A stretch of DNA of 64,000 nucleotides. Source: Clostridia bacterium (GTDB lineage: Bacteria; Bacillota; Clostridia; Oscillospirales; QAKW01). The notes beneath the pieces are model-generated. The model was given only the letters and a program-made list of their open reading frames with translations. It was not told where the DNA came from and ran no database searches. The position numbers and the translations under genes are program-made. Below, piece by piece: positions 5,357-6,424 of this stretch. Positions within the stretch are counted from its first letter, which is position 1; every line of letters begins with the position of its first letter. Location: positions 30,562 to 94,561 of the forward strand of contig JAFTZM010000022.1 of NCBI GenBank assembly GCA_017464525.1, given 5' to 3'.

Positions 5357-6424
5357 ATGATTATTAAAAATTTAAATAAAAATATTTTGTTAACACTTAC
5401 TTTAACATTATTTTTATCAATGTTTTCATTAATTGAATTTACTGCATCAGCTGTTAATAAAACTGAGATCGAAAGTAATAATAGACATGCTAATGCAACA
5501 GTCACTTATGATGATTATAATAATTATGGTGTTATTTCCTCTACAACAGATATCGATTGGTGGTAAGTAACCTTTAGTCAATCTGGTTCTGCTAATTTCT
5601 TTTTAGGAAATATCCCATCAGGCCTAAATTACAATCTATTTTTATATAAAAGCAATGGAACAACCATGATTGCCAGATCAATCGATTCAAATGAAACAAG
5701 AAATTCCGAATTGATTACTGCTTATGTAAATGCAGGAGAAACATACAAAATAAGAATTAATTCAACTGCAGGATCTTCAACATCTCAATATCTTTTTAGA
5801 ACAAAAATAACTACAAGTCAACGTCAAGGAAAAGTCTTTACCCAGACTTCTGTGCAACCCAACAATTTGAACACCAGATATAATGCAACTATTATCCTTC
5901 CAGAACTCTGGGAAATGGGGTATGATGCAGGTGAATATGTGGATCATTACGCATCGTCGGCTTATATTCAAATGCCAGACTGTGATTTGGTTGTTATAAC
6001 AAGTCATGGTGATGAAGGCAGAATATATTTTTATGATGATAGTTTTATGACAGGAGGTACTGCTACATATGGAATTCCATACTGTGCCTGTTTACCAAAT
6101 TATGCAACAGGTGCCTTAACCAGAGTAAAGCTTCTGCTTTTTTCAGGATGTAATACTGGAGATTCCTCTTCAATTCATGGCAATTTAGTCGATGTTGCAC
6201 TAAGCAAAGATGTCATGTGTTGTATCGGATGGACAGAAAGTTTCTGGGATGCGGATATCTACTATTGGCATACTAAATTTTTTGAAAAACTATCTGAAGG
6301 GCTTACTGTTGGAGATGCAATAAGTGAAACCAACGCTTGGATTGCAGCATATGCAACAGAACTCTCAACAATAACTGCTCAATATTATGGATCCAGTGCA
6401 CTTCATGCTCTAACATTAAAATAA
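5357..6424 (+). pseudogene. secreted PPC-domain protein with a C-terminal caspase-fold-like (clan CD-like) cysteine peptidase domain, interrupted by an in-frame TAA at 5564-5566
   Basis: Signal peptide. PPC motifs TDIDWW(*)VTF...YNLFLYKSNG...AGETYKIRI continue in the same frame through the TAA. C-terminal domain has a hydrophobic strand + SHG and a hydrophobic strand + SGC, a His/Cys dyad arrangement. RBS AAAGGAGAA. Confidence 0.55.

Follow-up and report, generated by a model that had tools for sequence, protein, structure and literature searches.

An apparently recent stop codon in a predicted secreted clan CD protease gene of a Clostridia bacterium, and recurrent loss of the protease beside an intact PepSY-like partner

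In a 64,000-nucleotide stretch of DNA from a Clostridia bacterium (GTDB lineage Bacteria; Bacillota; Clostridia; Oscillospirales; QAKW01), a reading frame that runs from position 5357 to 6424 is interrupted by an in-frame TAA at 5564-5566 (GenBank assembly GCA_017464525.1, contig JAFTZM010000022.1, forward-strand positions 30,562 to 94,561; this whole stretch is herein referred to as the window, and positions are counted within it). The question raised by this locus is whether the stop is an error in the assembly, a site of recoding, a boundary between two working genes or the inactivation of one gene. We find that the frame is very probably a single gene, predicted from its sequence to encode a Sec-secreted two-domain protease, which was recently inactivated by the TAA at codon 70; an intact gene for a putative membrane-anchored partner follows it, and a candidate leader peptide precedes it. 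The features of the broken gene and its partner are as follows.

5357-5563, + strand: 5' fragment of the protease gene, 69 codons, encoding the signal peptide and the first 37 residues of a PPC-like domain
5564-5566, + strand: premature TAA, at the K/Q position of the motif D-x-D-W-W-[KQ]-[VI]-T-F
5567-5815, + strand: rest of the PPC-like (collagen-binding-domain-like) module, residues 71-153, identified by matches to the family profile, Pfam PPC and collagenase domains
5666-6424, + strand: 252-residue open reading frame called by gene callers (P0001, IJ043_04625), whose start is an internal Met of the PPC-like domain
5816-6424, + strand: predicted clan CD domain (caspase-hemoglobinase fold, CHAT-like) and natural stop, with His217 at 6005-6007 and Cys265 at 6149-6151
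6447-7253, + strand: intact partner gene, 268 residues, whose predicted model shows an N-terminal transmembrane helix, then a beta domain and a pair of PepSY/cystatin-like modules, each made of a helix plus a sheet

From ATG 5357, which is preceded by a GGAG Shine-Dalgarno sequence at 5345-5348, the frame runs for 69 codons to the TAA (...TDIDWW-stop-VTFSQSG...) and then stays open for 285 more before the TAA at 6422-6424, and an earlier interpretation made from the letters of the window by themselves (herein the sequence-only reading) was correct in describing one frame broken at this point only. The stop lies in the context GATTGGTGGTAAGTAACC, at the site TGG TGG TAA GTA, which contains no homopolymer. 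Because the next possible start past the stop (the first in-frame ATG, GTG or TTG) is ATG 5666, 100 nucleotides downstream of it, gene callers report two open reading frames (ORFs) of 69 and 252 residues, the former of which stands in the NCBI annotation as a separate hypothetical protein, IJ043_04620. The bases upstream of ATG 5666, aatggaacaaccATG, contain on direct reading no GGAGG-type Shine-Dalgarno sequence, and the ORF that starts there lacks a signal peptide, as had been noted before; this ORF would seem to be an artefact of gene calling rather than a product.

The comparison with homologues indicates what the stop replaced. The 285 post-stop codons align end to end with intact homologues at 47%, 44% and 34% identity with 100% query coverage, and match the profile of the C-terminal domain (which includes the window sequence itself) with an E value of 2.5e-101. 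At the position of the stop, homologues carry Lys (P0002, P0003, P0015, L006), Gln (P0005), Arg (P0016) or Tyr (L021), the closest intact ones reading DVDWW-K-ITF, DIDWW-K-VTF and DVDMW-Q-VTF, and Val occupies this position in the M23, 3D and C39-like proteins that carry the same N-terminal module. Since homologues have K or Q here, a nonsense mutation is the supported explanation, as the sequence-only reading had proposed, and its placement of the stop inside the PPC hallmark agrees both with these aligned homologues and with the collagen-binding-domain alignment described below, which put the stop in the hallmark strand. One sense codon thus appears to have become TAA; the Lys of homologues fits the change from AAA that had been put forward, and CAA (Gln) and TAT (Tyr), each likewise one step from TAA, are equally possible ancestors.

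Residues 1-32 read by eye as a Sec-type signal peptide with a basic N-region, a hydrophobic core and an A-S-A/V junction, and the remainder of the 5' fragment carries E37-x-E39-x-N41-N42 and D65-x-D67-W-W. The two sides of the stop make up one domain: positions 1-37 of the N-domain profile match the 5' fragment (E 2.1e-16) and positions 39-119 match the post-stop part (E 4.7e-32). Pfam PPC (PF04151) scores the translation at 19.8 bits if the stop is entered as X and at 24.5 bits (E 5e-5) if it is entered as Lys, just under the curated gathering score of 25.9 and hence a marginal miss for membership, and 18 of the 86 relatives match it at E <= 0.01 (best 4e-7). A search of PDB sequences with a 10-sequence N-domain profile found no match, whereas the 86-sequence family profile matched the solved collagenase collagen-binding domains 1nqd, 4hpk, 1nqj and 3jqw at E 0.006-0.014, in an alignment that spans the whole domain (profile 29-142 against chain 10-120) and pairs E-x-E-x-N-N with EKENND and D-W-W-K-I-T-F with D-Y-Y-S-F-E-V. 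Together these matches support the PPC assignment made earlier and a PPC-like, collagen-binding-domain-like module with a predicted beta-sandwich fold. With the collagen-binding domains of ColG and ColH (1nqd, 4hpk, 3jqw) it shares the full-domain alignment and the motifs E-x-E-x-N-[ND] and D-x-x-D-[WY]-[WY]-x-F; it differs in preceding the catalytic domain, which in the collagenases it follows. The same module is fused to other domains in P0006-P0012, namely M23 (P0006, P0010, P0011), 3D (P0007-P0009) and a C39-like domain (P0012), with 53-59% identity to the window in P0006-P0011 and 46% in P0012, which suggests a shuffled targeting module common to secreted hydrolases.

The C-terminal domain is predicted to be a peptidase domain of clan CD, with CHAT and the gingipains as its nearest relatives, and to have a His217/Cys265 dyad. 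An AlphaFold2 model of 5816-6421 (predicted local distance difference test score, pLDDT, 97; predicted template modelling score 0.93) has the alpha/beta/alpha sandwich fold of caspases, gingipains, legumain, separase and CHAT. His217 (CAT) and Cys265 (TGT), 48 residues apart, stand in VVITS-H217-G and LLLFSG-C265 directly after model strands 58-62 and 106-110, and 73 and 72 of the 86 family sequences, respectively, retain them. The window protein has no match to Pfam CHAT (PF12770) even at E <= 1, and its C-terminal domain has no Pfam match; among its relatives, 20 of 86 match CHAT at E <= 0.01 (best 1.5e-6), one matches Peptidase_C25 and one Peptidase_C14. The dyad geometry and the clan that had been proposed from sequence are thereby borne out, by the strands that precede the two residues, the model fold, the matches of relatives and the conservation of the dyad. 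Because the window protein itself lacks a CHAT match, we file it as CHAT-like within clan CD and not as a member of Pfam CHAT.

Known relatives of this domain differ from it in setting. CHAT proteases (PF12770; SAVED-CHAT 8tl0, DdvA 8rot, Csx29/TPR-CHAT 7y83) are cytoplasmic or signalling modules fused to SAVED, TPR or anti-sigma domains, whereas the window gene would encode a small protein that is exported by Sec and has a PPC-like domain at its N terminus; PADLOC gives no match that would link it to a defence system. The gingipains RgpB and Kgp (MEROPS C25) of Porphyromonas are secreted clan CD proteases, as is predicted here, but are large, carry a C-terminal domain for type IX secretion and are inhibited in cis by a prodomain; in the window, the candidate for such restraint is encoded apart from the protease, as a putative membrane-anchored PepSY-like protein, and the accessory domain, which is PPC-like, stands at the N terminus.

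Searched exhaustively as a profile, the C-terminal domain recovered at least 1,462 representatives of clusters at 50% identity with E <= 1e-3, and 313 with E <= 1e-10. Among 153 family sequences that were classified, 48 consist of a full PPC-like domain plus the C-terminal domain, nearly all with a recognisable signal peptide, 28 of a signal peptide and the C-terminal domain only, and 22 are larger multidomain proteins, the rest being fragments. The arrangement of signal peptide, PPC-like domain and C-terminal domain is therefore the commonest single architecture of the family, and the sequence-only reading overstated the case in calling it unusual; nor is the N-terminal placement of the module an oddity, given that it also precedes M23, 3D and C39-like domains. 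The family has no dedicated Pfam or NCBIfam model and no curated NCBIfam name.

Is the window an isolated case? Ten family sequences, P0001 included, lack a signal peptide and begin within the PPC-like domain. The DNA was checked for seven of these ten shortened representatives, and in all seven there is a real lesion, with the missing part still present upstream. Seven lineages carry independent lesions of the protease gene and an eighth locus has lost it altogether; the partner is full length in every one.

Window: TAA
L006: frameshift of a single base
L009-L011: frameshift within a run of A, found in several samples
L008: loss of both the start codon and the Shine-Dalgarno sequence
L019: frameshift
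L020: stop in the signal peptide and a frameshift
L021, 584-1639 (Logan SRR33263704): second Trp codon of D-I-D-W-W, next to that of the window TAA, changed from TGG to TGA, leaving 69 residues
L017: no protease gene at all; the partner remains and follows the upstream gene at a distance of 44 bp

The variety of these lesions in type and position argues against programmed recoding and for repeated inactivation, and protease loss with retention of the partner would seem to be a recurrent outcome in the family. Loci L017 (1729-2971) and L006 (4049-6653) come from closely related strains with common flanks (DUF5685, DnaJ and a 131-residue ORF): the L006 strain has the frameshifted protease gene followed by the partner, and in L017 the partner stands alone 44 bp past the 131-residue ORF, the protease gene having been cleanly removed. 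Shortened forms are probably over-represented among the cluster representatives, and only N-terminal lesions leave a long C-domain ORF that can be found; scans of genome and metagenome contigs for family loci, made with a narrow pattern, returned just three loci and one locus, respectively.

The simplest alternative to a mutated gene is an intact one, in which codon 70 (5564-5566) is really a sense codon (AAA) and the TAA is an error of sequencing or assembly. A single base would restore the frame, and everything downstream of the stop looks functional. The same TAA, however, is present in five other public assemblies (L001, L002, L003, L015, L016), which derive from at least four different read sets and different assemblers. 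Three are 100% identical to the window over 401 bp, TAA included (ENA ERZ28654221, Logan SRR12529360 and SRR12529366), and were found by looking up the 252-residue product; the other two, reached via an I38V variant of the 69-residue fragment, carry a second haplotype that is one single-nucleotide polymorphism (SNP; A5468G, I38V) away from the window and reads TGG TGG TAA GTA (ERZ28654327, ERZ28018670). No intact near-identical protein was found in a collection of 15 billion proteins, in which the best full-length match (among 5.8 billion clusters) is 47% identical, and the site is, as noted above, no homopolymer. Because the allele stands on both haplotypes and in five or more independent assemblies, the sequencing error that the sequence-only reading had allowed for is refuted, and we give it a practically negligible chance; the TAA is real, and the population of this Clostridia lineage, as far as sampled, carries it.

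A genuine stop might still be decoded at some frequency, giving regulated, low-level synthesis of the full-length protease, in which case the L021 stop would mark a conserved site. Two independent in-frame stops at adjacent codons of D-x-D-W-W-K (TAA in the window, TGA in L021), each leaving a fragment of 69 residues, together with an intact downstream frame and dyad, would suit such programmed read-through. Both release factors, however, recognise TAA, which leaks less than any other bacterial stop; it is also the ordinary terminator of the window, where it ends 43 of the 66 ORFs of at least 200 residues (mnmE, rsmG, jag and yidC among them) and is used six times as a stop in the TAA-G context found here. 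The window contains no transfer RNA (tRNA) gene, and no Rfam element lies in 4900-7400. Moreover, the two stops differ, most homologues have a plain sense codon at the position, and the frameshifts, the loss of a start, the multiply hit copy and the complete deletion in other lineages fit no recoding model. We consider read-through very improbable, and the adjacency of the stops in the window and L021 is probably an unexplained coincidence. Similarly slender is the chance that the gene is split and functional, with the 252-residue ORF translated from ATG 5666 and acting inside the cell, and the 69-residue fragment perhaps a separate secreted peptide. Gene callers annotate both ORFs, the 28 of 153 family members that consist of signal peptide and C-terminal domain do without the PPC-like domain, and intracellular CHAT proteases exist (8tl0); yet the family members without a PPC-like domain all have a signal peptide, ATG 5666 falls in the middle of the beta-sandwich, without a Shine-Dalgarno sequence and 100 nucleotides past the stop, and the other shortened homologues start at different, arbitrary points after frameshifts. 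Three further candidates were rejected: an alternative genetic code, as TAA ends most conserved genes in the window; reading of TGA as Trp in L021, whose neighbouring pheT is called through under code 11; and phase variation of the window gene, whose lesion is a substitution outside any repeat (only the L009 lesion sits in a short A run).

The most economical reading would therefore be that translation terminates at codon 70, after the signal peptide and 37 residues, and that no secreted protease and no functional product is made. The event appears to be recent, because apart from the stop the frame is open, the dyad is present and hardly any conserved residue has changed. Across 20 columns with at least 75% consensus, the window C-terminal domain deviates at two, within the normal range of the family (median two over 22 columns). 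The deviating residues past the stop are N196D and G285D, the latter at a position that is Gly in 82 of 86 family sequences; codon 285 (6209-6211) encodes Asp, and the motif K-G-A-x-C-I-G-W reads K-D-V-M-C-C-I-G-W in the window. G285D may be a first sign of relaxed constraint or may be lineage-specific. Both haplotypes carry the TAA and are one SNP apart, so that the inactivation is older than A5468G or has been recombined across it.

Several points weigh against this account. Some TAA read-through at a low level is conceivable, a suppressor tRNA may be encoded elsewhere in the genome, and an intact downstream frame with its dyad is as compatible with continued use as with recent inactivation. 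The stop of the distant homologue L021 at the neighbouring codon is an odd coincidence, with a probability of about 3% for that pair by chance, a figure computed after eight lesions had already been examined. The disrupted homologues were chosen because they looked truncated, so that the lesion rate is not an unbiased one, and the roles that may be assigned to protease, partner and leader are read only from fold, synteny and sequence pattern.

What, then, of the gene that remains? The partner gene starts 22 nucleotides past the protease stop with its own Shine-Dalgarno sequence, and in all 12 distinct loci whose contigs extend far enough, homologues with 22-36% identity come immediately after the protease gene. 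These homologues were taken from neighbouring ORFs, word-index searches having returned only the query and one other protein. In the predicted model (pLDDT 81.9), an N-terminal transmembrane helix is followed by a small beta domain and two helix-plus-sheet modules, each a helix on a four-stranded antiparallel sheet; arranged in tandem and predicted to be extracytoplasmic, these have a PepSY-like fold. None of eight partner homologues matches Pfam PepSY at E <= 5, and one touches DUF4901 (E 0.002). The gene is duplicated in tandem in L008 (3779-5673; 291 and 297 residues), and in L021 (1652-3364) a second, partial partner-like ORF follows the partner.

PepSY modules are known as protease-restraining propeptide elements, and YpeB is a membrane-anchored partner of a lytic enzyme; because of these roles, we infer that the partner might bind or restrain the secreted protease at the cell surface. 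It differs from the established PepSY regulators (YpeB, which pairs with the spore cortex lytic enzyme SleB, and the PepSY propeptides of M4 and M36 metalloproteases) in lacking a Pfam PepSY match. We know of no PepSY protein that is paired with a clan CD protease, and none of the papers searched mentions both terms.

The protease gene belongs to a horizontally acquired cassette of low guanine-plus-cytosine (GC) content, which comprises the candidate leader and terminator, the protease gene and the partner gene. Its further features are as follows.

4969-7291, no strand: low-GC island that holds the whole cassette, between rsmG (stop at 4966-4968) and jag (- strand, 7292-8152)
5192-5281, + strand: upstream small ORF, a candidate leader peptide of 29 codons plus TAA, MYHVSIQIKRDSVSIWNIPFRTNNLLLSI, with a strong Shine-Dalgarno sequence, AAAGGAGG
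5276-5320, + strand: hairpin of an intrinsic terminator, GCGCAGAAAC...GTTTCTGCGC followed by a run of T, directly past the small ORF and 37 nucleotides upstream of the protease ATG
7254-7290, no strand: perfect 17-bp hairpin between the convergent partner gene and jag, at the right edge of the island

The island is 2.3 kb long and has a GC content of 0.322, against 0.529 in the rest of the window; at third codon positions, the GC fraction of the cassette genes lies at 0.15-0.31, compared with 0.67-0.70 for mnmE, mnmG and rsmG. It sits inside the oriC-proximal block mnmE-mnmG-rsmG / jag-yidC-yidD-rnpA, and homologous cassettes in six other loci (L004-L009) are likewise lower in GC than their own flanks. 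No direct repeats flank the island borders, and searches of plasmids, phages and viral contigs gave no match.

Upstream of the protease gene, the small ORF ends one base short of a strong terminator hairpin (inverted repeat I3), whose 18-nucleotide arms are 94% complementary and form a 14-bp stem in the minimum-free-energy fold (z -3.65); a simple terminator scan did not list this hairpin. The leader motif P-[FV]-R-T-x-x-L-[LI]-L-S recurs, with the same length from ATG to motif, upstream of the protease gene in L005/L014, L006 and L007. Its codons differ synonymously (AGA, AGA, CGC and CGA for Arg; TTA, TTG, CTG and TTG for Leu), which indicates conservation at the level of the peptide. The terminator arms are conserved in L006 and L007 and occur as a variant in L005. 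The leader ORF has 29-36 codons and ends at or inside the hairpin at the window (5192-5320), L005 (5830-5990), L006 (4574-4720) and L007 (739-890). Small ORF and hairpin together look like a candidate leader-peptide attenuator of the protease operon.

Two observations concern other parts of the window. The proximity of the rnpA-yidC-jag block suggests that a second low-GC stretch (26-33% GC) at 11200-11800, just upstream of a 454-residue ORF (11601-12965), may represent the dnaA-proximal origin region. Long ORFs antisense to jag, yidC and other genes (7355-9145 and 10060-11529, + strand; for example one of 596 residues without a Pfam match) look like the shadow ORFs expected at 53% GC, and not like genes.

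Taken together, these features allow a mechanism to be proposed for intact copies of the cassette. The leader would gate transcription by translation-coupled attenuation; the protease would be exported and directed to its substrate by the PPC-like module, which also occurs on M23 and 3D cell-wall hydrolases; and the surface-anchored PepSY-like partner would restrain the protease or protect its producer. The strict adjacency of the two genes and the retention of the partner in 12 of 12 distinct loci, the seven disrupted lineages and L017 among them, are features of toxin-immunity pairs; we considered a pair of this type and do not claim one. The locus resembles the orphan immunity genes of bacteriocin and polymorphic-toxin loci in being a mobile low-GC cassette from which the gene for a secreted enzyme has been lost repeatedly, while the adjacent membrane protein gene stays intact and is sometimes duplicated (L008, L021). 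The analogy is one of pattern only. It is unlikely, although conceivable, that the cassette is an undescribed module of antagonism and self-protection of gut and rumen Clostridia, made up of a PPC-targeted CHAT-like effector, leader attenuation and a tandem-PepSY inhibitor or immunity protein, in which the TAA represents selected loss of the effector with immunity kept (a "cheater" or orphan-immunity state) and not neutral decay.

The stop itself is an everyday pseudogene event and matters mainly for annotation: the NCBI hypothetical proteins IJ043_04620, IJ043_04625 and IJ043_04630 are one broken gene and its partner. The cassette, more than the stop, might repay experimental work. Its protease gene represents a large, uncharacterised family of small, predicted secreted clan CD proteases found in anaerobic Clostridia, whose members regularly have a membrane-anchored PepSY-like protein as partner, are located on low-GC islands and are repeatedly lost. 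If the partner is indeed a trans-acting inhibitor, the two genes would pair a clan CD protease with a PepSY protein, a combination that we found described nowhere, and would offer a testable example of the gain and loss of secreted-enzyme genes in gut communities.

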